Program-made: the position numbers and the translations under genes
Assembly: GCA_036522535.1 (NCBI GenBank)
Contig: DATDFP010000282.1
Coordinates: forward strand, 1 to 34,164
Reading direction: 5' to 3'
Length of the DNA: 34,164 bases
Origin: Gemmatimonadales bacterium
Lineage (GTDB): Bacteria > Gemmatimonadota > Gemmatimonadetes > Gemmatimonadales > GWC2-71-9
Notes under the pieces: model-generated
The model's input: the letters and a program-made list of their open reading frames with translations, nothing else
Told to the model about the DNA's origin: nothing
Databases searched by the model: none
Part shown: in pieces, positions 21,983-34,164 of the stretch
How positions within the stretch are numbered: position 1 is the first letter of the stretch
Layout: each line of letters starts with the position of its first letter

Positions 21983-21989
21983 GAACCGG

Positions 21990-22095
21990 CGCTACGTTGT
22001 ACGACGCTACGTTTTACGAGGCTCGCGCGAGCATCACTTACAACGTAGCGTCGTAGCGTCGTACAACTGTGCTCAGCGTCATAGCGTCGTACAAC
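21990..22095. repeat. Intergenic hairpin element: two 15-mers (CGCTACGTTGTACGA / CGCTACGTTTTACGA), central 12-bp palindrome GCTCGCGCGAGC, then inverted copies (ACAACGTAGCG, TCGTAGCG, TCGTACAAC x2)
   Basis: Read directly. It fills almost the whole 118-bp gap between two same-strand GT4 genes. Confidence 0.65.
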
Positions 22096-22100
22096 GGCAT

Positions 22101-23204
22101 TCACCGCAGTATCTCCTCCCAAAACGCGAGCGTCCGCACGGCCACGGCGTCGTCGGAGAACAACTGCATCGCGCGGGCCCGTCCCGCCTGCGCGAACGAG
22201 TGGCGCACCTCGCTCGCCACCAGGCGCTTCAGCGCGGAGGCGAGCGCCGGCGCGTCGTCGGGAGGCACGATGATGCCGGCGTTGCCGATCACCTCGGGCG
22301 TGGCGCCCGCGTCGCTGCCCACAACCGCCACCTCGTGCGCCATCGCCTCTCCCACCACGTGGGCCGACACCTCCGCCCAATCGGGCAGTCCCCGCGACGG
22401 CTGCACGAGCACGTCGAGCTCGGCCCAGATCTTGGGTATCTCCTCGGGCGGCAGAGCGCCCACCCACCGCACGCGGGCCGCGAGCCGCAGCGCGCTCGCC
22501 AGCTGCTCCAACCGCTCGCGGTCGGGCCCGTCCCCAACCACGGTCAGGTGCCAGCGCTGCCCGCGAATCTCGGCCAGGGCCTGAAGCAAAGTATCGAGTC
22601 CCTTCTCCGGCACCAAGCGTCCGATGCACCCGATCGCGAGCCCCTCGTGATGCGAGTGTTCCGGGTTGGTCGGCACCTGCACGCCGAGCTGGGGGATCAC
22701 GCTGAGCGCCAGGTCGGGAACCGCGCGGCGCATCAGCGCGGCCGCTCCCTCGCTCGCCGCGATCGCGCCCTTGAGCCGGCGCAGGGTCCGCCGCCGGCGC
22801 CAGCGCACCAGGACGGGGAGCGGGAGGTCCACGTTCTCCCGGCTGAACAGCACCACTGAGAGCCGCAGCTTTCTGGCCGCGCGGACGACCTGCGGGCCGA
22901 CATGAGAAGTCGCGTCTTCTTCGACCTGGACTACATCGGGACGCTTGTCTCGCAACAGCGACACCAGGGCGCGCCGCGCGAACCGGGCCGCCGCCGGGTT
23001 GCGATAGCGGCGCATCTCGATGGGGAACACTTCTACCCCATTCTGCCGCTCCCAGCGCACCTCGAGCGTCCGACCCAACCCGGCTTCCTTCCAGCGCTCC
23101 GGTACGCCCACCGTGACGTCGAGCCCGCGGGCAGCAAGGGCGCGCAGCTTGCCCCGGTTGGCGGGGTTGATATAGACGTGGGAGATGATCAGAACGCGAC
23201 GCAT
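22101..23204 (-). CDS. Glycosyltransferase family 4
   Basis: N-terminus MRRVLIISHVYINPANRGKLRAL. C-terminal block VQPSRGLPDWAEVSAHVVGEAMAHEVAVVGSDAGATPEVIGNAGIIVPPDD. Confidence 0.85.
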   Translation of the reverse strand: MRRVLIISHVYINPANRGKLRALAARGLDVTVGVPERWKEAGLGRTLEVRWERQNGVEVFPIEMRRYRNPAAARFARRALVSLLRDKRPDVVQVEEDATSHVGPQVVRAARKLRLSVVLFSRENVDLPLPVLVRWRRRRTLRRLKGAIAASEGAAALMRRAVPDLALSVIPQLGVQVPTNPEHSHHEGLAIGCIGRLVPEKGLDTLLQALAEIRGQRWHLTVVGDGPDRERLEQLASALRLAARVRWVGALPPEEIPKIWAELDVLVQPSRGLPDWAEVSAHVVGEAMAHEVAVVGSDAGATPEVIGNAGIIVPPDDAPALASALKRLVASEVRHSFAQAGRARAMQLFSDDAVAVRTLAFWEEILR

Positions 23205-23211
23205 GGGCGGC

Positions 23212-23394
23212 GAGTGCGGAGTGCGGAATGCGGAATGGAGAATCTGCTGAAATGCGGAATGCGGAATGCGGAATGCGGAATGTCAGTGCGAGGGTCGAAC
23301 TCCGAGGTCGCGCTTCGACGCCATCCGATCAATTCCGCACTCCGCACTCCGCACTCCGCATTTGTGGGCATTCCGCACTCCGCATTCCGCATTT
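23212..23394. repeat. ORF-less heptamer-array hairpin: (GAGTGCG/GAATGCG)n ... 47-bp core ... (ATTCCGC/ACTCCGC)n, double-armed
   Basis: Left arrays are at 23212-23238 and 23250-23282. Right arrays are at 23330-23363 and 23370-23394. The junctions resemble those of the 4HB cassette at 30.7-31.15 kb (GGAATGCGGAATGT... and ...TCAATTCCGCA). Confidence 0.75.
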
Positions 23395-23410
23395 AGATTT
23401 AGCCCTCTCG

Positions 23411-23483
23411 CGGGCCCTTAGCTCAGCGGTTAGAGCAGCGGACTCATAATCCGTCGGTCCCAGGTTCAAATCCTGGAGGGCCC
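23411..23483 (+). tRNA. tRNA with CAU anticodon, elongator type; probably tRNA-Ile2 (lysidine-modified) rather than tRNA-Met
   Basis: It folds by hand as a 73-nt cloverleaf: acceptor GGGCCCT/AGGGCCC, D arm GCTC-AGCGGTTA-GAGC, anticodon arm GCGGA-CTCATAA-TCCGT, T arm CCAGG-TTCAAAT-CCTGG. The 1:72 pair is G-C, so it is not an initiator. It closely resembles my recollection of E. coli ileX. No encoded CCA. Confidence 0.9.
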
Positions 23484-23504
23484 ACGGACTAAAGGCTAGA
23501 AAGC

Positions 23505-23665
23505 AGGGAACGGTAACAGACGCACAGACGCACAGGGGAAAATACTAGACGCACAGACGCGGTAGACGCACAGACGCACCGGCACAGCGTCACCCGGACG
23601 GTCCTGTTCACTACGACCTGTTCACCCCTGCTGCGTCTATGCGTCTGTTGCTGTTCACCGTTCTC
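23505..23665. repeat. Imperfect palindromic element built from CAGACGCA octamer arrays and inverted TGCGTCT / CTGTTCAC copies
   Basis: AGACGC(A/G) occurs 6 times between 23516 and 23578. TGCGTCT occurs twice (23631-23647) and CTGTTCAC three times. The outer arms GAACGGTAACAG (23507-23518) and CTGTTCACCGTTC (23651-23663) are complementary apart from 1 inserted nt. The element occupies most of the tRNA-tRNA spacer. Confidence 0.55.
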
Positions 23666-23676
23666 CAGCCGTTCAG

Positions 23677-23750
23677 GGGTGGTTAGCTCAGCTGGTTAGA
23701 GCGCCGGTCTCACATACCGGAGGTCACAGGTTCGAGTCCTGTACCGCCCA
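23677..23750 (+). tRNA. tRNA-Val (anticodon CAC)
   Basis: It folds by hand as a 74-nt cloverleaf: acceptor GGGTGGT/ACCGCCC with one G-U pair, anticodon arm CCGGT-CTCACAT-ACCGG, T arm ACAGG-TTCGAGT-CCTGT. No encoded CCA. Confidence 0.9.
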
Positions 23751-23933
23751 TTCGCCTACCAGTATAGCGTTTCCTCATAACCTTTGGCTCGCCTCGCACG
23801 CCCCCCCACGGCGCACCAGCGTCCTTCAGGACGCGCTTGGGCCGAGGGCGCCGTTCAGGGCATCCAATCAATCCACGTCGGAACTCTTCCGGGGGTCTTC
23901 CAGCACCTGTCAATCTTGCGCCGGCATTCGCGG

Positions 23934-24974
23934 TCAGAGCAGCCCGCCCCTCCGGAGCTTCCCCGGAGGGTCGTAGCGCGTGTCGTGCGCGGCGAGCACT
24001 TCGGCGGGTGAGACCGTGGCCACGCCCAATTTCCCGACCTCGATGCCGGCCGCGTAGTTCGCGAGCCGCGCTGCCTCACGCACGGATGCGCCGGCGCCGA
24101 GCGCCGTACCCACCCATGCCGTCACCGTGTCACCCGCGCCCGACACGTCGAACACCTCCCGGGCGATCGCGGGGATGCGGCTGATCTCCTTGTCCTTGGT
24201 GACCAGCACCATGCCCTCGGCGCCGAGGGTGAGGAGCAAGTTGTCCACGCCCAGCTTGTCGAGCGATTGCGGGAGCGCGTCCGGACGGTCGATGTCGAGC
24301 GCCGCGCCCATGGCCCGCTCCAGCTCGCGGCGGTTGGGCTTGAACACGGTCGCCCCGCGGTAAGCGAAGAAGTGCTTGAACTTCGGGTCCACCACGACCG
24401 GAATGCCGCGCTTCTTGGCCAGCGTCATCGCCCGCTCGATCACCGCCGCGGTCAGGGTGCCCTTGTTGTAGTCCTCCAACACGAGCGCGTCGGCGTCGGC
24501 GGTCGCCCGCTCCAGCTCGGCCTGGAGCTGCGCTTCGGCGCGCTCCGGCACCGGATCTTCCACCTCTTCGTCGATGCGCACCACCTGCTGGCCACGCGCG
24601 GTGACCCGGGTCTTGGACGTCGTGGGCCGTGCCGCTACGACGACGAGGTGGCTGTCGGTGAGCCGGCTCTGAGCCAGCTCGCCGCGAAACGAGTCGCCGC
24701 GCGCATCGTCTCCGATCACCGCGACGAGCCGGCACTCGGCGCCAATCGCCGCCACATTGGCTGCCACGTTCGCCGCGCCGCCGAGCGCGTGGCGGCGCGC
24801 CCGGACCGAGACGACGGGAACCGGCGCCTCGGGCGAGATCCGGTCCGCGTCGCCCGAGAGATAGATGTCGAGCATCGCGTCGCCCACGACGACGATGCGC
24901 CGGTCGACCATCTTCGCCACCAGGCTCTCTAAATGCTCCCGGGTCAAGCGGGGGTCGGAAGAGAGAGCGGTCAC
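23934..24974 (-). CDS. hldA: D-glycero-beta-D-manno-heptose-7-phosphate kinase (RfaE domain I type, PfkB family)
   Basis: IVVVGDAMLDIYLSGDADRISPEAPVPVVSV...ALGGAANVAANVAAIGAECRLVAVIGDD is the RfaE-domain-I signature. The C-terminal motif DVSGAGDTV is the PfkB signature. The GTG start overlaps the upstream stop (GTGA). Confidence 0.85.
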   Translation of the reverse strand: MTALSSDPRLTREHLESLVAKMVDRRIVVVGDAMLDIYLSGDADRISPEAPVPVVSVRARRHALGGAANVAANVAAIGAECRLVAVIGDDARGDSFRGELAQSRLTDSHLVVVAARPTTSKTRVTARGQQVVRIDEEVEDPVPERAEAQLQAELERATADADALVLEDYNKGTLTAAVIERAMTLAKKRGIPVVVDPKFKHFFAYRGATVFKPNRRELERAMGAALDIDRPDALPQSLDKLGVDNLLLTLGAEGMVLVTKDKEISRIPAIAREVFDVSGAGDTVTAWVGTALGAGASVREAARLANYAAGIEVGKLGVATVSPAEVLAAHDTRYDPPGKLRRGGLL

Positions 24975-26497
24975 GGCAGCCCTCCTGTCGTCGAAAACCG
25001 GTAGCTCAGCGCCGCCCGCCCCTCGAACCGGGTGCGCGTGTCGCCCGCGAGGTGCTGGAAGTTGCTGATCCGATGGACGCCCGCGTCGAACGTGACCACC
25101 ACGCGGGCACCGGCGCTGTAGTCGCCCGACACCGCGGCCCGCAGCGTCCGCTCGACGGTCCCCTGGAAGATGGGCGGAGTCGTGGGATAGTTGGGGACGG
25201 CCGGATGGGGCAGGCGCGGATCTCCCTCGCCCTGCCGCAACAGCGTCAGCTCCGGCGCGAGCAGCAACCCGGGCGCCGCCAGCACGCTGAGCTTGAGCGT
25301 GGCCTGATCGTAGTCGGCGAAATTGCGGCCGGTGCCGAGGAAATGGTAGAGCGGCACCTCGAGGTTGTCTTCGTTCCGGTAGGTGAGGTTCGCCACCCGC
25401 GTGTAGAACAGCGTCCAGGCGGCCGATCCGCCCCCCAAGGAACCCCTGGCACCCGCGGTGAGGGCATAGCTCGAGGGCTTCAGATCGGTCGCCGTCTTGC
25501 GGTCGATCTCGATGTCGTCGAGCATCAGCTGCGCGAACAGGCTCACGGCTCCGTCCCGCTCCACGTCAAGCCCGACGAAGCTGTTGACGTCCGTGCCGGT
25601 ATTCAGCTGTTCGAAATATCCGACATTCAGGATGTTCAAATACCACGGCTCGAATTGGCGCCCGGGTCCCGAGAGCACCGAGCCTTCCCACACCGCGCCG
25701 CTCCACCGATCTGAAGGTCTGATCCAGAGACGATGTTGCGACATGTAGCGGTGCACCGTGGCGCCGGTCGAGTCGGTGCGATCGTCGAGCTGCGTGGCGA
25801 TCGCCTGAAGCTGCACGCGCGACGTGCCCACCGCGAGCGCGAGGTGGTCCAGCCCGTAGGGATCGTCGGATAGCAACAAGCCTTGAATGACGCTCGGTCC
25901 CCAGTTCCGGTCCAGTCTTCCGAAAAACAGCTCGCCGAACCGCCACTGGGCGCTCACGTAGCTCTCGGCCGTGCGGCCTGCGATCACGCGGTTCTTTCTG
26001 CCGAACCAATCCGGGTCGTACTTGAGCCGGGTGTCAAAGTACGTGTGGGTGACCGCAACGACCGGTCCAGTCAGCAGGGTGAGCGCCAGGCCCCCATCCA
26101 CGAATCCGTGCTTGGGTCCCGACTGCCTCGGACCGCTCGAGTCCAACGCGGCCAGTGGGTCGCGCCGGGTGTATGTGGCGGCCGCAACCCCGACGTCGCC
26201 GACGATCTGGTAGCTCGGGGCCTCTCGTTCGAGCGCGAACTCCCGCAGCAGCCGGCGCACCAGCGCGCTTCCAGCGCTACCGACCGTGAGCGTGTCGACG
26301 TCCCGGAGCGCGCGGACCAGGTCGGCCTGCCGGAGCGGACGCGTGAGCGGTGTGGGGTCGTGCAGTATGCCGGCTGCGATCAGGTGCTCGATGTACGGCA
26401 TGGCCCAGTGCTGGAGCGGAACGTAGGGTGAGGCCGCTTGGGCCGCGAGAACGGCGCCTGAGAGGAACGGGATCGCCACGACGACCCTCGCCCTCAC
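24971..26497 (-). CDS. Capsule assembly Wzi-family outer-membrane protein (tentative)
   Basis: A signal peptide is followed by SPYVPLQHWAMPYIEHLIAAGILHDPTPLTRPLRQADLVRAL, a Wzi-like N-terminal helical motif. A roughly 450-aa stretch rich in alternating beta-strand patterns follows. The GTG start overlaps the upstream stop. Confidence 0.6.
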   Translation of the reverse strand: MRARVVVAIPFLSGAVLAAQAASPYVPLQHWAMPYIEHLIAAGILHDPTPLTRPLRQADLVRALRDVDTLTVGSAGSALVRRLLREFALEREAPSYQIVGDVGVAAATYTRRDPLAALDSSGPRQSGPKHGFVDGGLALTLLTGPVVAVTHTYFDTRLKYDPDWFGRKNRVIAGRTAESYVSAQWRFGELFFGRLDRNWGPSVIQGLLLSDDPYGLDHLALAVGTSRVQLQAIATQLDDRTDSTGATVHRYMSQHRLWIRPSDRWSGAVWEGSVLSGPGRQFEPWYLNILNVGYFEQLNTGTDVNSFVGLDVERDGAVSLFAQLMLDDIEIDRKTATDLKPSSYALTAGARGSLGGGSAAWTLFYTRVANLTYRNEDNLEVPLYHFLGTGRNFADYDQATLKLSVLAAPGLLLAPELTLLRQGEGDPRLPHPAVPNYPTTPPIFQGTVERTLRAAVSGDYSAGARVVVTFDAGVHRISNFQHLAGDTRTRFEGRAALSYRFSTTGGLP

Positions 26498-28011
26498 GGC
26501 AGAGAGCCTTCGCCGTGGAGCCGGAAATCGAAGCCCAGCGAGCCCACCCAGCGAGTGTCACTGGCGCCGGTCACATGGGCCGCGTTGTGGATCAGGTGAA
26601 CACCGCCGTTTGCCACGAGTCCCCAGCTCGGGTGCTGCCAGTTCGCGCCAAGCGCCAGGCGCAGCGTGCGCTCCACCACGCCCTGAAAGATCGTTGCGGT
26701 CGTCGGGTAGTCGGGGACCAGGGGATGTGGCAGGCGCGGGTCCCCCTGGCCCTGGCGCAGCACAGTGGCTTCGGGCTGGAGCAGGAGACCCGACTGCGTG
26801 AGAAGGGTCAGCCTGGCGGTTGCCTGGTCATAGTCGTCGAAGTTCCGGCCCGTGCCGAGGAGGTGAAGCAGCGGGACCTGGAGGTTGTCCTCGTTACGGT
26901 ACGTCAGATTCGCGACTTGCGTATAGAAGGCGGTGAGCGTCGCTGTTTCCGCGAGACGGCCCTTCACGCCCGCCGTGAACGCATAGCTGGTCGGCTTCAA
27001 GTCGGCGGCGGTCTTGCGGGATATCTGAATGTCGTCGAGCATGAATTGGCCGAACACGCTCACGTTGCCCCGACGCTCGAACTCACCGCCAACGAAGAAG
27101 TTCGCGTTTGCTCCGGCGCTCCCCGCGCGCAGCACTCCCAGGGTTGCGGCGTTCAGGTACCACGGCTCAAGCTGTCGCCCGACGCCGGACAGCACCGAGC
27201 CTTGCCAGAGCGCCAACGTCCAGCGTCCCTCGGGCCGGATCCACAGCCGGTGTTGTATCATGTAGCGGTTCACCGGCGCACCGGTGGAATCGGTCCGCGT
27301 ATCGAGCTGAGAGACGTATACCTGTAGTTTGATTCGCGGCATCCCGACCGTCAGCGCGAGGTGGTCGAGGCTGTACGGATTGTCGGAGAGCAGGACGCCC
27401 TGGATCCCGCTAGGTCCCCAGTTCCGGTCGAGGATCCCGAAGAACAGCTCTCCGAAACGCCACTGCCCGCTGACGTAACCTTCGGCAAACCGGGTCGCGT
27501 TATCGGAGGTGCCAAACCAGTCGGGGTCGAGCTCCAGCCGGGTATCGACGGTAGGATGGCTCACGCCCACGAACGGCCCGAACGCGAAGAGGAGCTGTCC
27601 CCCGGCATTCGCGAAGACGTGATTGCCAGACTGCCTTGGCGGCGTGCCTCTTCCCAGTTCCAACGGGTCGCGCACGGTGTAGGTGGCCGCGGCCAATCCG
27701 CCGTTCAGATCGACGCGGTAGCGCGGCCCGTGAATGTCGGGCTTGAACTCGGCGTGGAGGCGGCGGATCGTAGCCGTGGTAGCCTCGCCCAGGTTGGACG
27801 TATCGACCGCTTCCAGCGCGCGGACCAGGTCCGCCTGCCTCAGGGGCCGCGTCAGGGGCGTCGGGTCTTCGAGCACGCCGGCCGAGATCAGCTGTTCGAC
27901 GTAAGGCATCGCCCAGTGCGCGAGCGGCACATAGGGCGACGCCTCCTGACCTGCGAGGCGGTGGGGGTCGAGGACGCATGTCGCGAGGAGGAACGCAACC
28001 CGGGCGCGCAT
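26494..28011 (-). CDS. Capsule assembly Wzi-family outer-membrane protein, tandem paralogue (tentative)
   Basis: The 794-aa ORF was trimmed to ATG 28011 (MRARVAFLLATCVL...). It is collinear with the neighbour over its full length, for example SPYVPLAHWAMPYVEQLISAGVLEDPTPLTRPLRQADLVRAL and LRQGQGDPRLPHPLVPDYPTT against LRQGEGDPRLPHPAVPNYPTT. Confidence 0.6.
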   Translation of the reverse strand: MRARVAFLLATCVLDPHRLAGQEASPYVPLAHWAMPYVEQLISAGVLEDPTPLTRPLRQADLVRALEAVDTSNLGEATTATIRRLHAEFKPDIHGPRYRVDLNGGLAAATYTVRDPLELGRGTPPRQSGNHVFANAGGQLLFAFGPFVGVSHPTVDTRLELDPDWFGTSDNATRFAEGYVSGQWRFGELFFGILDRNWGPSGIQGVLLSDNPYSLDHLALTVGMPRIKLQVYVSQLDTRTDSTGAPVNRYMIQHRLWIRPEGRWTLALWQGSVLSGVGRQLEPWYLNAATLGVLRAGSAGANANFFVGGEFERRGNVSVFGQFMLDDIQISRKTAADLKPTSYAFTAGVKGRLAETATLTAFYTQVANLTYRNEDNLQVPLLHLLGTGRNFDDYDQATARLTLLTQSGLLLQPEATVLRQGQGDPRLPHPLVPDYPTTATIFQGVVERTLRLALGANWQHPSWGLVANGGVHLIHNAAHVTGASDTRWVGSLGFDFRLHGEGSLP

Positions 28012-28107
28012 GAAGCGCGCAATAGTGGAGTTGCCGGTCGCAAGCCGCAAGCGGTTTCCCGGCGTCCAGTTGTTAGAGCCGCATCGCAGGTCTATTCTTG
28101 CCCCCAA

Positions 28108-28962
28108 GTGTCTCCGCTGCTCGTGCTGATCACGGCCGTCCTGGCGACGACCTATTCGGGCCCGATCGTCCGCTTCGCCACGGCGCCGGCGGTGGCGATC
28201 GCATTCTGGCGGCTGGCGCTGGTGCTGCCCGTCACGTTCGGACTGGCGACCCGCGAGCCGCAGGTGCGGGCGGTGCGTGAGGCGTTTCGGCTGATGCTCT
28301 TGTCGGGGCTGCTCCTGGCGGTGCACTTCTGGGCGTGGATCGCGTCGCTCCGGTTCACGACCGTGGCGAGCTCGGTTCTGCTGGTTTCCCTCAAACCGAT
28401 CTTCGCGTGGGTGCTCGCGGCGCTGTGGCTGGGCGAGCACCCCGGCCGGGCGGAGCGCTGGGGCATCGTGGTCGCCGTGGTGGGCGCATCGCTGATCGGT
28501 CTCGCCGACGCCCGCCTGTCGCTGGGTGCGCTGGGCGGCGATGCACTGGCCCTGATCGGCGCCGTGACGGGCGCCGGCTATTACGTGATAGGACGCCGCG
28601 TGCGGCAGACCGTCGGTGTGTGGAGCTACGCGTCCGCGGTGTACGCGGTCGCCGCCGTGGTCCTGGGCGTCGTGGCCGCGTTCAGCGGCGCGCCGCTCAC
28701 GGGGTTCGGCACGCGGGACTGGCAGGTCTTCGCGGCCATGGCTGCCGGCCCGATGCTCGTCGGACACACGGGCATGAACTACGCGCTTCAACACTTCCGC
28801 GCGACGACGGTGAACGTGGCGGCCCTGGGCGAGCCGGTGGGAGCCACGCTGATCGCCTGGCTGGTCCCCGCCATCCATGAGGTGCCGACGCCGAGGGCCC
28901 TCGTGGGGGGAATGCTCGTGCTCGTCGGGATCGGGTTGTCGGTGGGACGAGCCAGGCGATGA
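28108..28962 (+). CDS. EamA/DMT-family transporter
   Basis: About ten hydrophobic helices with a two-fold EamA-like organisation. The ORF was trimmed to GTG 28108. The upstream part of ORF 27361..28962 is antisense to the Wzi paralogue and non-protein-like. Confidence 0.8.
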   Translation: MSPLLVLITAVLATTYSGPIVRFATAPAVAIAFWRLALVLPVTFGLATREPQVRAVREAFRLMLLSGLLLAVHFWAWIASLRFTTVASSVLLVSLKPIFAWVLAALWLGEHPGRAERWGIVVAVVGASLIGLADARLSLGALGGDALALIGAVTGAGYYVIGRRVRQTVGVWSYASAVYAVAAVVLGVVAAFSGAPLTGFGTRDWQVFAAMAAGPMLVGHTGMNYALQHFRATTVNVAALGEPVGATLIAWLVPAIHEVPTPRALVGGMLVLVGIGLSVGRARR

Positions 28963-29993
28963 GGGTCGAGCAAGCGCGGGGCTCGCTCGTCGAGACCTGG
29001 CACGATGTCCACGTCGCCGTCGTGGACTCGACCGGTCGCCTGCTCGCCCGGTCCGGAGACCCCGACCTCGTCACCTACTGGCGCTCGGCCGCGAAGCCCT
29101 TCCAGGCCCTGCCGCTCGTCGATGATGGAGTGGTGGACCGGTTCGGCATCAGCACTCAGGAGTTGGCACTGTGTTGCGCCTCGCACTCGAGCGAGCCGGA
29201 TCAGATAGCGCTGGTGCGGAACCTGCTCGCCAGGATCGGCTGCAGCGAGCGGGATCTCCTGTGCGGTCCGCATCCGCCGCTATCCGAGCGCGTGGCCTCG
29301 GACTACGCGACCCGCGGCGTGCGGCTCACGGCCGTGTACTCGAACTGCTCGGGGAAGCACGCCGGAATGCTCGCGCTGGCGCGGCACCACGGCTGGCCGA
29401 CGGAGTTCTACACGCGCCTCGAGCACCCGGTGCAACAACGCTGCCTCGCCGAGGTCAGCCGCTGGACGGAAGTCCCGCAGAACGACATCCGGACGGCGGT
29501 TGATGGCTGCGGCGTCGCGTGCTACGGGCTGCCCCTGCGGAATATGGCGCTGGCGTATGCGAGGCTGGCAAACGCGGAACGCGGAGCGCTGAACGCGGAA
29601 CTTCAAAGGGAGCGCCCTGACACGCAGGACCCTGCACGACAGTTCCGCGTTCCGCCCTCCACGTTCCGCGTTGTTGAAGCGATGCTGCGCCATCCCGAGC
29701 TCGTCGCCGGGGAAGGGCGTGCGTGCACCGAGATCATGCGGGCTCATCCCGGGCGCGTGATCGCGAAGGTGGGTGCCGAAGGCGTCTATTGCGCGCTGCT
29801 CAAGCGGGAAGGCTTGGGCGTGGCGCTCAAGGTCGCGGACGGCCATGGCGTTGCGGCGGCGCTCGCCCTGGCGGCCGTGTTGGAGGAGCTCGGCCTCCGA
29901 CCCCGCCCGGCCTCGCTCGCCGCGCGGCCCAGCGTGAACACGCGGGGCGAGACGGTCGGCGAGCTGCGTGTAAATGGGAGACTGGAGAAATGA
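28959..29993 (+). CDS. Asparaginase II family (PF06089-like) protein carrying a repeat-derived in-frame insertion
   Basis: RSAAKPFQALPLV, CASHSSEP, NCSGKHAGMLAL, AVDGCGVACYGLPL, HPELVAGEGRACTEIM and AKVGAEGVYC match the Rhizobium-type asparaginase II family. Its ATG overlaps the EamA stop (ATGA). Confidence 0.8.
   Translation: MRVEQARGSLVETWHDVHVAVVDSTGRLLARSGDPDLVTYWRSAAKPFQALPLVDDGVVDRFGISTQELALCCASHSSEPDQIALVRNLLARIGCSERDLLCGPHPPLSERVASDYATRGVRLTAVYSNCSGKHAGMLALARHHGWPTEFYTRLEHPVQQRCLAEVSRWTEVPQNDIRTAVDGCGVACYGLPLRNMALAYARLANAERGALNAELQRERPDTQDPARQFRVPPSTFRVVEAMLRHPELVAGEGRACTEIMRAHPGRVIAKVGAEGVYCALLKREGLGVALKVADGHGVAAALALAAVLEELGLRPRPASLAARPSVNTRGETVGELRVNGRLEK
29570..29671. repeat. Heptamer-array hairpin (GAACGCG units) inside the asparaginase-family CDS: 31-bp arms (28/31 complementary) around a 40-bp loop
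   Basis: The left arm is AACGCGGAACGCGGAGCGCTGAACGCGGAAC (29570-29600). The right arm is GTTCCGCGTTCCGCCCTCCACGTTCCGCGTT (29641-29671). The total is 102 bp, or 34 codons. Confidence 0.7.
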
Positions 29994-30027
29994 AAGGATG
30001 CGGCAAGGGTGCCCGGGGGCGCGTAAT

Positions 30028-30693
30028 ATGACCAGGCGCCGCTCGCCCGAGAATGGCGTTCCCGCGCCTCTCGACGCCGTGACCGCCGCCCTCGTTCGGG
30101 TGGCGGCCGCGCTCGCCGAGGGAAAGCTCGACGTGCTGCGGACCCGGCTCGCCGCCGCGCGGAGCGCGGGAGTGCCCGATCTCTGGGTTGACGAACTGTT
30201 GCTCCAGAGCCTGCTCGTGGTCGGCTACCCGCTGACGCTGGTGGCGTTCGCCGCCTGGCGCGAGGTGGCGGGACCGCTCCACGTGGCCGGGAACGGCGAG
30301 GGAGAAGAGCTGGCGCATGAGGACTGGTCGTCGTGGGCGAAGCGCGGGGCCGCGGTGTGCGCGGAGGTCTACGGGCGCGCCTACCACAAGCTGCTCCTCA
30401 ATCTCCGGTCGCTGCATCCGGCGCTCGAGGACCTCGTGCTGGTAGACGCCTATGGCAAGTTGATCGCCCGACCGGGCCTCGATCTCAAGCGGCGCGAGCT
30501 GTGCACCGTGGCGGCGATCGCGGTGCTCGGCACGGCGCGGCAGCTGCACTCGCACCTGCGCGGCGCGCTCAACAGCGGAGCGACGCGCGCCGAGGTCGAG
30601 GCGGTGCTGGAGCTGATCGACGCCGATCTCGACCCCGCACACCGGCGCAGCGCGCGGGAGCAGTGGGAGGATGTGAAGGGGCGGAGGGTATGA
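30028..30693 (+). CDS. Carboxymuconolactone decarboxylase (CMD/AhpD-like) family protein
   Basis: GLDLKRRELCTVAAIAVLGTARQLHSHLRGALNSGATRAEVEAVLELI is a typical CMD-domain pattern. The ORF was trimmed to ATG 30028. Confidence 0.75.
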   Translation: MTRRRSPENGVPAPLDAVTAALVRVAAALAEGKLDVLRTRLAAARSAGVPDLWVDELLLQSLLVVGYPLTLVAFAAWREVAGPLHVAGNGEGEELAHEDWSSWAKRGAAVCAEVYGRAYHKLLLNLRSLHPALEDLVLVDAYGKLIARPGLDLKRRELCTVAAIAVLGTARQLHSHLRGALNSGATRAEVEAVLELIDADLDPAHRRSAREQWEDVKGRRV

Positions 30694-31156
30694 TTGTCGA
30701 TTGCGGATTGCGGAACTACCAAGTGCGGAATGGGGAATTCGGAATGCGGAATGTAAAGGGGAGGTCATGTCCCAGGTCGACTTGAAGGATCGTACTCGGG
30801 TATTTGCGTCGGCGATCATCGGGTTGGTGGAGGATCTCCCTCGAGGTCGGAGTGCCGATGTGATCGGCACGCAGTTGCTTCGCGCCGGGACCTCCGTTGC
30901 CGCCAACTATCGCTCCGCATGCCGAGCGAGATCGCGCAAGGAGTTCGTTGCGAAGATGGGAGTCGTTGAAGAGGAGTCCGACGAGGCGCAGTTCTGGCTG
31001 GATCTCTTAGTGGAACGGGGACTCGGCGACGCCGAGCGGGTGTCCTCATTGCGGGAAGAAGCTCGCCAGCTGGTTGCAATTGCGGTGTCGTCGATTCGGA
31101 CGGCGCGCGGAACTCCCCGTTCAATTCCGCATTCCACATTCCGCATTCCGCATTAG
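30694..31156 (+). mobile_element. Four-helix-bundle gene cassette bracketed by inverted heptamer arrays (IVS-like module)
   Basis: The left array is at 30699-30753 (GATTGCG x2 ... GAATGGG GAATTCG GAATGCG GAATG). The right array is at 31122-31154 (CAATTCCGCATTCCACATTCCGCATTCCGCATT). The cassette starts 1 nt after the CMD stop and ends 15 nt before the obg ATG. Mobility is inferred, not shown. Confidence 0.55.
30767..31156 (+). CDS. Four-helix-bundle protein (23S rRNA intervening-sequence protein / Avd-like family, TIGR02436/PF05635-like)
   Basis: FASAIIGLVEDLPRGRSADVIGTQLLRAGTSVAANYRSACRARSRKEFVAKMGVVEEESDEAQFWLDLL is the family hallmark. GGAGG precedes ATG 30767. The last roughly 12 codons (IPHSTFRIPH) are read from the right repeat array. 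Confidence 0.85.
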   Translation: MSQVDLKDRTRVFASAIIGLVEDLPRGRSADVIGTQLLRAGTSVAANYRSACRARSRKEFVAKMGVVEEESDEAQFWLDLLVERGLGDAERVSSLREEARQLVAIAVSSIRTARGTPRSIPHSTFRIPH

Positions 31157-33379: not shown

Positions 33380-33636
33380 TTGAACTCCGGGCGCATGGAC
33401 CCGGGGTGGGTCCGCCCATGGTTCTTTGAACCCCGGGGCATGGCCCCGGGGTTTGGTCTGCCCGTACCTGCTTGAACCCCGGGGCACGGCCCCGGGGTTA
33501 GTCCGCTCTGCGGCCGGTGTCGGTGGGCGTGACCTGGACTTGGGCAGTTCTGTGTGCTTGAACCCCGGGGCATGGCCCCGGGGGGTAGGTCTGTCCGTAC
33601 CTGCTTGAACCCCGGGGCACCGCCCCGGGGTTAACC
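33380..33636 (+). repeat. REP cluster: five direct copies of TTGAACCCCGGGGCA(T/C)(G/C)GCCCCGGGGT hairpins (first copy degenerate)
   Basis: The copies start at about 33380 (degenerate), 33426, 33472, 33558 and 33605. The units 33426-33500 and 33558-33633 are a duplicated two-REP composite. Confidence 0.8.
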
Positions 33637-33659
33637 TACCCCTAACCGACTGCGGGGTA

Positions 33660-34068: not shown

Positions 34069-34135
34069 GTTAACCCCGGGGCGGTGCCCCGGGGTTAACG
34101 CGGGGCGGACGCGCGGCGCCATGCCCCGGGGTTAA
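34069..34135 (+). repeat. REP copies downstream of the RAYT gene (GTTAACCCCGGGGCGGTGCCCCGGGGTTAAC plus a partial copy ...CATGCCCCGGGGTTAAC)
   Basis: Read directly. The first copy is a near-perfect 31-bp palindrome at 34069-34099. The second may be cut by the window end. Confidence 0.7.
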
Positions 34136-34164
34136 CGGCGACCATCCCCCGGCGCTAACGCGCG

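Follow-up and report, generated by a model that had tools for sequence, protein, structure and literature searches.

Four-helix-bundle (S23p) genes between inverted heptamer arrays, and gene-less hairpins of the same family, in a Gemmatimonadales contig and its relatives

The DNA analyzed here (the window) is a 34,164-bp stretch of contig DATDFP010000282.1 from a Gemmatimonadales bacterium, with a GC content of 68.8%; its proteins have their best matches in metagenome-assembled genomes of Gemmatimonadota. Between 21.98 and 31.16 kb it carries five palindromic elements with arms of short tandem units, designated E1 to E5 (Table 1). E1 fills the 118-nt gap between two minus-strand GT4 glycosyltransferase genes, E2 lies between the start of the second of these genes (23204) and tRNA-Met (23412), E3 follows in the spacer between tRNA-Met and tRNA-Val, and E4 is found within the gene for asparaginase II. 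E5 is wedged between a CMD-family gene and obg, and encloses a gene encoding a four-helix-bundle (4HB) protein of the S23p family. We describe E5 as a cassette bounded by inverted arrays of one heptamer, and E4 as a gene-less miniature of this cassette.

The elements were called by sequence reading, Tandem Repeats Finder, and an inverted-repeat search, and all five that an earlier note on this DNA had claimed were present. A custom strict detector, which looks for a tandem array (period 6-16) and a reverse-complement counterpart no more than 800 nt away, identified seven inverted array pairs in the window; these belong to E2, E4, and E5 without exception. Chance pairs per window averaged 0.09 in 100 composition-matched Markov simulations and 0.06 in 100 local block shuffles (maximum of one in each). 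The detector misses E1 and E3, the least regular of the five elements. Both show less regularity than the note had stated, and the 3' arm of E5 does not occupy a free gap but falls within the 3' end of the 4HB open reading frame (ORF).

Table 1. Coordinates of the five elements and their parts in the window.
Feature	Position	Strand	Description
E1	21987-22096	-	intercistronic palindrome, 15-nt units (7+8: CGCTACG + TTGTACGA)
E1 left arm	21990-22023		CGCTACGTTGTACGA x2.3
E1 right arm	22039-22096		irregular mixture of 15- and 8-nt reverse-complement units
E2	23209-23393	.	composite gene-less hairpin, GCGGAAT/GCGGAGT units, two nested array pairs
E2 outer arms	23209-23237 and 23365-23393
E2 inner arms	23249-23282 and 23332-23360
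E2 core	23283-23331		49 nt
E3	23491-23673	+	stem across the whole tRNA-Met/tRNA-Val spacer, with NAGACGCN octamers
E3 left octamers	23517-23532 and 23547-23579		six CAGACGCA-type units
E3 right octamers	23632-23647		two reverse-complement units
E4	29571-29672	+	102-nt gene-less hairpin, GCGGAAC units, in frame within asparaginase II
E4 arms	29571-29601 and 29642-29672
E4 core	29602-29641		40 nt
E5 5' arm	30699-30753	+	two GATTGCG units (30699-30714), then ~4.6 GCGGAAT-type units (30722-30753)
4HB Shine-Dalgarno	30758-30764	+	GGGGAGG
4HB gene	30767-31156	+	129 aa, PF05635/TIGR02436 (S23p)
E5 3' arm	31124-31154	+	~4.4 ATTCCGC units, reverse complement of the 5' arm

E5 is a cassette in which the 4HB gene, together with its own ribosome-binding site, is placed between two inverted arrays, each with four to five copies of the same heptamer. 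The 5' arm begins 6 nt past the stop codon of the CMD-family gene, and the 3' arm makes up the last ~11 codons of the 4HB gene, ending at its stop, 15 nt before the obg ATG (31172). The 4HB protein scored 74.5 bits against TIGR02436 (cut-off 24) and 53.2 bits against PF05635 (cut-off 33.8), a family discussed in PMC10053308, and it matched PDB 2RLD, an entry holding five chains, with an E value of 1.8e-15. It is the sole ORF of the cassette, which contains no transposase domain, and PADLOC gave no hit for it. The predicted fold of E5 pairs the 5' arm with the 3' arm, and in the minimum-free-energy structure the arm stem extends into GGGGAG:CUCCCC, so that the Shine-Dalgarno sequence is covered by CTCCCC at 31113-31118. 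The matched inner flanks pair at -15.0 kcal/mol against -13.3 +/- 0.4 kcal/mol for permuted flanks (0/300), a difference that fuzzy arm boundaries may inflate.

Orthologs of the 4HB gene with 62-94% identity are found in the CMD-4HB-obg-dprA synteny of many Gemmatimonadota assemblies. Every ortholog locus shows the same order, that is, CMD stop, four to five heptamers, Shine-Dalgarno sequence, ORF, reverse-complement array (forming the C-terminal tail and stop), and obg start. The heptamers include GCGGAAT, GCGGAGT, GCGAAAT, and GCGGATT, and both unit variants and copy number vary by locus. At 61 orthologous loci the position of the 4HB stop relative to the obg start ranges from -11 to +15 nt; frequent arrangements are TAGATG, TGATG, and an overlap of 11 nt, and obg usually has no separate ribosome-binding site. 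Judged from this position of the stop codon, the essential obg is probably translationally coupled to the cassette ORF, and cassettes between the upstream gene and obg probably mediate this coupling.

The association between 4HB genes and heptamer arrays was examined in a comparison sample consisting of the window and 98 related loci, 80 of them from a metagenome scan with a diverse alignment; a contig protein scan gave at least nine loci. According to the strict detector, inverted tandem arrays bracket 73 of the 86 4HB genes with enough flank, compared with 2 of 109 size-matched control ORFs, and degenerate inverted heptamers were visible by eye in all 13 cases that the detector missed. A period of 7 was found for 190 pairs, and a single pair had period 14 (2x7). 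Among arrays of at least three copies, 387 had period 7, against at most 38 at any other period. The two arms of a cassette contain 4.4 +/- 0.7 and 4.3 +/- 0.6 units, separated by a loop of 359-516 nt, and they co-vary: 20 unit types occur in 63 distinct cassettes, where the arms are exact reverse complements in 47 and within 1 nt of it in 62, compared with 1% exact matches for permuted arm partners. In 64 cassettes the arms, 28-35 nt long, are on average 93% complementary. The link to the TIGR02436 gene, which had been suspected from the window, is thus confirmed, and it holds across phyla.

Indeed, the heptamer-armed design recurs around 4HB genes in at least seven bacterial phyla. The 4HB genes of Acidobacteriota, Planctomycetota, and Bacteroidota have their own AT-rich or GC-rich heptamers, and all eight plasmid 4HB genes of Chloroflexota, Bacteroidota, Cyanobacteriota, and Spirochaetota are flanked by heptamer arrays, with AATCCCC units in the cyanobacterial plasmid cassettes. 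The annotated neighbors of the eight plasmid cassettes are all co-directional with the 4HB gene (15/15). Orientation was judged from these annotated plasmid records only; orientation and position statistics from our own ORF maps were dropped as unreliable, because spurious antisense ORFs get chosen at 69% GC, even in the window. The complete 239-kb Nostoc flagelliforme plasmid pNFSY06 served as an unbiased test. Five 4HB genes are annotated on it, and every one of them is bracketed by its own heptamer (GGGAGCA, AATTCAA, GCAATTC, TAATTCG, and CAGATTG). This plasmid holds 42 heptamer arrays of at least three copies and 27 inverted pairs, compared with 0.75 and 0 in simulation, and TCAGTTA-type arrays are also present. 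Its gene-less hairpin families use the heptamer of a resident cassette (AATTCAA six times, GCAATTC three times), which is how miniatures relate to an autonomous element. The rule drawn from these data is that every 4HB gene is enclosed by inverted arrays of a heptamer of its own, with gene-less copies of the same heptamer scattered through the replicon.

E4 is such a miniature: it has the same arms as the cassette and a ~40-nt core composed of the first ~20 and last ~20 internal bases of the cassette, with no ORF. The resemblance of its core to the cassette inner flanks was scored at 4.5 against a threshold of 4.0, a narrow pass. An asparaginase ortholog (69% identical) at the related locus L017 is without exactly the E4 stretch, leaving a 31-aa gap, and many relatives carry a hairpin at the E4 site, where the units are GCGGAAT or GCGGATT and the loop measures 15, 40, or 57 nt. 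In ~480 kb of non-redundant loci, 69 distinct gene-less hairpins were identified, with loops falling in two classes of 9-19 nt and 36-45 nt. The 36-45-nt cores consist of TAAAGGTGAGGTCGTGCCGC + GCGCAGAACTCCCCGTTCA, the inner flanks of the cassette, and the ~40-nt core reads (T)AAAGGxGAGGTCGTGCCGC then GC(A)CGAC(G)CTCCCCGTT(C)A, in which the 5' inner flank, with ribosome-binding site and start codon, is joined to the 3' inner flank. Eighteen of 25 cores lie above the 99th percentile of shuffles, and the 15-nt loops retain the 5' part alone. Because the cores of E4 and of the relatives' gene-less hairpins are the inner flanks of the cassette, the family is explained by descent from one element, not by convergence. 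The junctions of E2 (GGAATGT... and ...TCAATTCCGC) agree with the ends of the 4HB cassette, and E2 is probably a further miniature. From such sequence comparison E2, E4, and E5 appear to be one family related by descent, with E2 placed by arms and junctions only.

Members of this family occupy non-orthologous sites. L018 carries one in a tRNA spacer, L017 and L018 each have one at the PfkB junction (none in the window), and L017 has another at the EamA/asparaginase junction; many loci have one after dprA, and most relatives, L017 excepted, have one within asparaginase. Since miniatures lie at unrelated sites and their presence differs among relatives, the family is selfish DNA in dispersed form, now or in the past, comparable to a transposon with its miniature derivatives. 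A tally of gene-less hairpins inside ORFs was dropped, as it was inflated by orthologous copies of one asparaginase insertion.

E1 and E3 belong to families different from that of E2, E4, and E5. The design is the same, a fold-back element, but the units differ, and both lie in transcribed spacers that hold other-unit hairpins in relatives. The same gap between the glycosyltransferase genes contains a four-unit GCNNTCA heptamer hairpin in L017 and is just 30 nt long in L018, and no other copy of the E1 unit was found in ~510 kb of related loci. The E3 stem comprises 42 nt with 79% complementarity, and its predicted fold pairs the tRNA-Met trailer with the tRNA-Val leader. The NAGACGCN octamers after tRNA-Met are kept in L017 (inverted) and in L009 (three direct copies only), and a GCGGAAT-type gene-less hairpin takes their place in the tRNA spacer of L018; within the same ~510 kb, E3 octamers occur only at the orthologous tRNA spacer. 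A 4HB cassette with an 8- or 15-nt unit was not seen in the sampled loci. The hairpins with other units at the E1 and E3 sites of relatives indicate that these sites turn over between hairpins of the same design and unrelated units.

These comparisons bear on three statements in the earlier note. That one architecture recurs with unrelated unit sequences, and not as one mobile sequence, is supported; in relatives, other-unit hairpins of this design occupy the same gaps. Its preference for a shared mechanism over descent does not stand for E4 and the relatives' gene-less hairpins, whose cores from the cassette flanks indicate descent (E2 being placed as above). Copy numbers, which it had suggested comparing, differ between relatives, as a slippage model predicts. 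The same variation in copy number would also be expected if the elements had arisen in place, through replication slippage at short duplications, with spacer hairpins favored by selection or quasi-palindrome correction, no common descent, and the 4HB gene irrelevant. Such an origin is plausible for E1 and E3, given that the E1 unit is unique to the window and that the E3 octamers are confined to the orthologous tRNA spacer, with direct copies only in L009, and polymerase slippage is the cause to which the bacterial excess of heptamers has been ascribed (cited in PMC4679880, PMC4692102). However, slippage alone would not yield the association with 4HB genes (73/86 vs. 2/109), and gene-less hairpins at non-orthologous sites have in common a core that derives from the cassette, with loops nearly constant at 39-42 nt, so that we regard origin in place as improbable for the set as a whole.

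The tRNA-Met/tRNA-Val segment (window 23412-23750) is inverted relative to L017 3861-4113 and L018 4092-4368. In L009 (494-861), inverted GCGGAGT arrays are located on both sides of the tRNA pair, and recombination between such arrays may therefore cause inversions of this kind.

Most of the elements are predicted to fold stably as RNA. Compared with shuffles, E2 (-119 kcal/mol) reached z = -10.4, E3 with its two tRNAs z = -6.6, E4 z = -5.8 and -7.3 on the two strands, and E5 z = -3.2. The Rfam search of the window returned two tRNAs only, with no rRNA and no match on the elements, and promoter and terminator scans of both regions examined gave no sites. Ordinary intrinsic terminators or attenuators would be suggested by GC-rich stems at gene ends, but a T-run is absent from all elements, the stems (28-60 bp) and loops (40-390 nt) are long, an essential co-directional gene directly follows E5, and E4 lies within an ORF; this explanation is hardly credible. 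According to previous studies, heptamer arrays were interpreted as operator-like regulator sites, as for Geobacter, or as G-quadruplexes, as for Xanthomonas (PMC2700814, PMC4692102), which would act on neighboring genes at the DNA level, and the position of E2 in a divergent promoter region would suit such a role. Nevertheless, GCGGAAT, AATTCAA, and most other units are without G-tracts, elements also occur within ORFs and between tightly coupled cistrons, the scan found no promoter-like sites, and the invariable inverted pairing and the arm co-variation indicate a fold-back structure. We therefore consider a role as regulator sites or G-quadruplexes very unlikely here.

The closest described system is the intervening sequence (IVS) of 23S rRNA that carries an S23p ORF, although the earlier note knew of no described system of this kind. 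In Leptospira, Coxiella, and Brucella, the IVS has a PF05635 ORF inside terminal inverted repeats with a stem of ~28 bp, variable-copy tandem heptamers can precede the ORF, forms without the ORF exist, as is the case for E1-E4, and mobility has long been suspected. RNase III cuts the stem of the Coxiella IVS in vitro, with the 5' cut at the point where the first heptamer begins; two to three heptamers are present there, and their copy number varies (PMC4990558). The IVS is situated in helix 9, 25, or 45 of 23S rRNA, whereas the window has no rRNA, and the elements described here lie between protein cistrons, in a tRNA spacer, at an operon 5' end, or in frame within an ORF. Furthermore, both arms consist here entirely of heptamer arrays, and miniatures are scattered around the genome. 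We class the present elements as IVS-type S23p elements outside rRNA, with dispersed miniatures.

By analogy with these S23p-bearing intervening sequences, the cassette and its miniatures would be transcribed within host operons and tRNA precursors, where the arms would fold into an RNA stem of 28-35 bp that holds the insert out of the host transcript, and RNase III would cut this heptamer stem. In the cassette, the base of the stem would also cover the 4HB ribosome-binding site. Arm length would drift via slippage, with the complementarity of the two arms being maintained. For excision by RNase III the precedent is Coxiella; here the stem is known from sequence and predicted fold, and the mismatch spectrum gives such excision no sequence-level support. 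Taken as a whole, we consider this explanation by a cassette, its miniatures, and transcribed stems cut by RNase III reasonably probable.

Several observations weigh against it. Mismatches in the stems of 64 cassettes comprise 33 of the G:U-compatible and 31 of the A:C type, leaving no RNA-strand signature; the arms may thus owe their complementarity to maintenance at the DNA level or to copying, and not to selection acting on a single transcript. The asymmetry between the two types, which had been tried as a test of RNA-level selection, thus gave no support either way. Gene-less copies are present in both orientations relative to host transcripts, and efficient cutting by RNase III would disrupt translational coupling to obg. 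The E2 core scored 2.0 against the cassette consensus, below the shuffle threshold of 4.0, and the E1 fold is marginal (z = -1.8 and -2.6). With periods of 15 and 8, E1 and E3 are outliers, because all 4HB-associated arrays have period 7 or 14. The sampled loci are mostly orthologs of one syntenic block, so that independent insertion sites are far fewer than loci. A distant PF05635 gene, on contig L112, has no tandem arrays, and the heptamer rule is therefore not absolute for PF05635. Finally, traces of movement (a transposase or target-site duplication) were not found in the loci examined.

Part of this counter-evidence would fit DNA resembling a REPIN (a hairpin-forming pair of repetitive extragenic palindromic, REP, sequences) or a miniature inverted-repeat transposable element (MITE), moved by an unlinked enzyme that recognizes DNA hairpins, for example a transposase (Y1 or of another type) or a host function in recombination or replication. 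The 4HB gene would then be a passenger and the RNA stem a by-product. Apart from the strand-symmetric mismatches and the gene-less copies in either orientation, the nesting in E2, the clustering of hairpins on the Nostoc plasmid, and the variable presence among relatives at several sites agree with this view. On the other hand, no transposase gene was found near any cassette in ~750 kb examined, and filled and empty asparaginase sites showed no clear target-site duplication, which is a weak test with few clean site pairs. Nor would one expect a passenger gene to be present in practically all full-length elements of at least seven phyla, and the five heptamers on one plasmid would require five specificities in trans. 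An unlinked mover is thus unlikely, and the cassette with its miniatures remains the reading that we prefer.

The elements share further features with known repeats. As in the system of REP sequences and their associated tyrosine transposases (RAYT), a gene is flanked by inverted cognate repeats, gene-less palindromic doublets lie in extragenic space, and several families occur in one genome. However, RAYT is Y1 transposase-like (IS200/IS605-like), whereas the 4HB protein has no recognized catalytic motif, and REP arms are single palindromes, not tandem arrays. Like MITEs, the miniatures are small, non-coding, dispersed copies with terminal inverted repeats that derive from a longer coding element, except that the parent element encodes the 4HB protein and no transposase domain. 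Correia/nemis MITEs of Neisseria, which are co-transcribed with host genes and whose folded terminal repeats are RNase III substrates, are likewise miniature inverted-repeat elements, but their terminal repeats are unique, they have target-site duplications, and they lack an associated 4HB gene. In fold and Pfam family the 4HB protein agrees with Avd, the accessory protein of diversity-generating retroelements, which forms a pentameric barrel that binds nucleic acid and reverse transcriptase. Unlike the situation of Avd, no reverse transcriptase and no template or variable repeats were found near the cassettes, and none by E5, whose neighbors are the CMD-family gene, obg, and dprA.

Short tandemly repeated repetitive (STRR) sequences have been known since 1990, and 7 nt is the dominant longer simple repeat in many bacteria. 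The period-7 arrays described here, called with this period by Tandem Repeats Finder, consist, like STRR, of head-to-tail 7-nt units in variable copy, which does not apply to E1 (15 nt) and E3 (8 nt). Cyanobacterial STRR, Xanthomonas GGGAATC, Beggiatoaceae TAACTGA, and the Geobacter elements share with our arrays two to six or more tandem heptamers, a mostly intergenic position, frequent convergent pairs, and strain-variable length, and they were explained by G-quadruplexes, regulator sites, or slippage, with no link to 4HB genes (PMC4692102, PMC4679880, PMC2700814). Heptamer arrays are on record for Nostoc as well. In Xanthomonas, 70-75 inverted pairs of GGGAATC heptamer arrays were reported, and according to the supplementary table one four-unit GGGAATC array falls on the XCC0516 start, 6 nt from bccP (PMC4692102). 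XCC0516 is an S23p protein with a solved pentameric structure. A full-text literature search, with subscription literature and database family notes outside its scope, gave no paper linking 4HB genes to heptamer arrays, and a search for the exact repeat strings and for 4HB/S23p with heptamers gave the Coxiella paper only.

The link between 4HB genes and heptamers may explain the puzzling 7-base tandem repeats of bacteria. As a speculative extension, which we put forward tentatively and regard as doubtful, 4HB genes and their cognate heptamer arrays might constitute an unrecognized, phylum-spanning class of selfish elements, in which the pentameric 4HB protein recognizes its own heptamer in about five tandem copies, either in RNA or in a DNA hairpin, and promotes the spread or maintenance of the cassette and its miniatures. 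The 23S IVS, cyanobacterial STRR, TAACTGA repeats, and Xanthomonas GGGAATC pairs would then be products of the same system, which would account for the excess of heptamers in prokaryotes. If true, it would give one testable answer to the role of the function-unknown TIGR02436/S23p family, the source of rRNA IVS, and the dominance of 7-nt repeats. In practice, such elements break assemblies, extend or split ORF calls, and cause in-frame insertions in enzymes.

Other features of the cassettes and their surroundings were also observed. In the 5' arms of many cassettes (e.g., 30722-30753), the third unit from the loop often has TCGG, GTGG, or GGGG in place of GCGG. This variant unit is seen in GCGGAAT- and GCGGATT-type cassettes and forms a conserved stem mismatch, which could be a functional bulge or a result of common ancestry. 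One Gemmatimonadales genome has a second 4HB paralog (L007, 723-1314) with a different bracketing repeat, consisting of six upstream copies of the 14-mer AATGTCC + AATGATC and the reverse complement downstream. The plasmid cassettes in L099, L102, L101, L105, and L103 sit within defense-like operons, that is, between DUF1156 and Swt1-family HEPN proteins (twice, in different phyla), after helicase genes, or directly upstream of cas1. On contig L112, labeled as phage, dispersed inverted GTGATAT/ATATCAC copies (2280-2500) precede the PF05635 gene; its neighbors encode an M18 aminopeptidase and a CHAP/dockerin protein, and the contig is therefore probably bacterial.

A lone heptamer array with no near partner is located in frame within the radical SAM (HemN-like) gene after dprA (L017 12763-12794, L073 5243-5274, and L074 5250-5281). 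"Loops" of 258-276 nt after dprA, tried as degenerate 4HB remnants, proved to be a short hairpin and such a lone array in the radical SAM gene. On Nostoc plasmid NZ_CP024791.1, AATTCAA hairpins are found between two annotated sigma-70 factor gene fragments (174399-174533, L110) and within an annotated AlkB coding sequence (114502-114690, L109), and both may be further insertions into ORFs. Downstream of dprA, the window contains five copies of a REP-like palindrome, TTGAACCCCGGGGCATGGCCCCGGGGTT (33380-33640), part of which (33380-33506) was called as a period-46 array by Tandem Repeats Finder, and many relatives have a heptamer hairpin there. At the window edge (34114-34160), a period-23 tandem repeat, CGGCGCCATCCCCCGGCGCTAA x2.1, was also identified.

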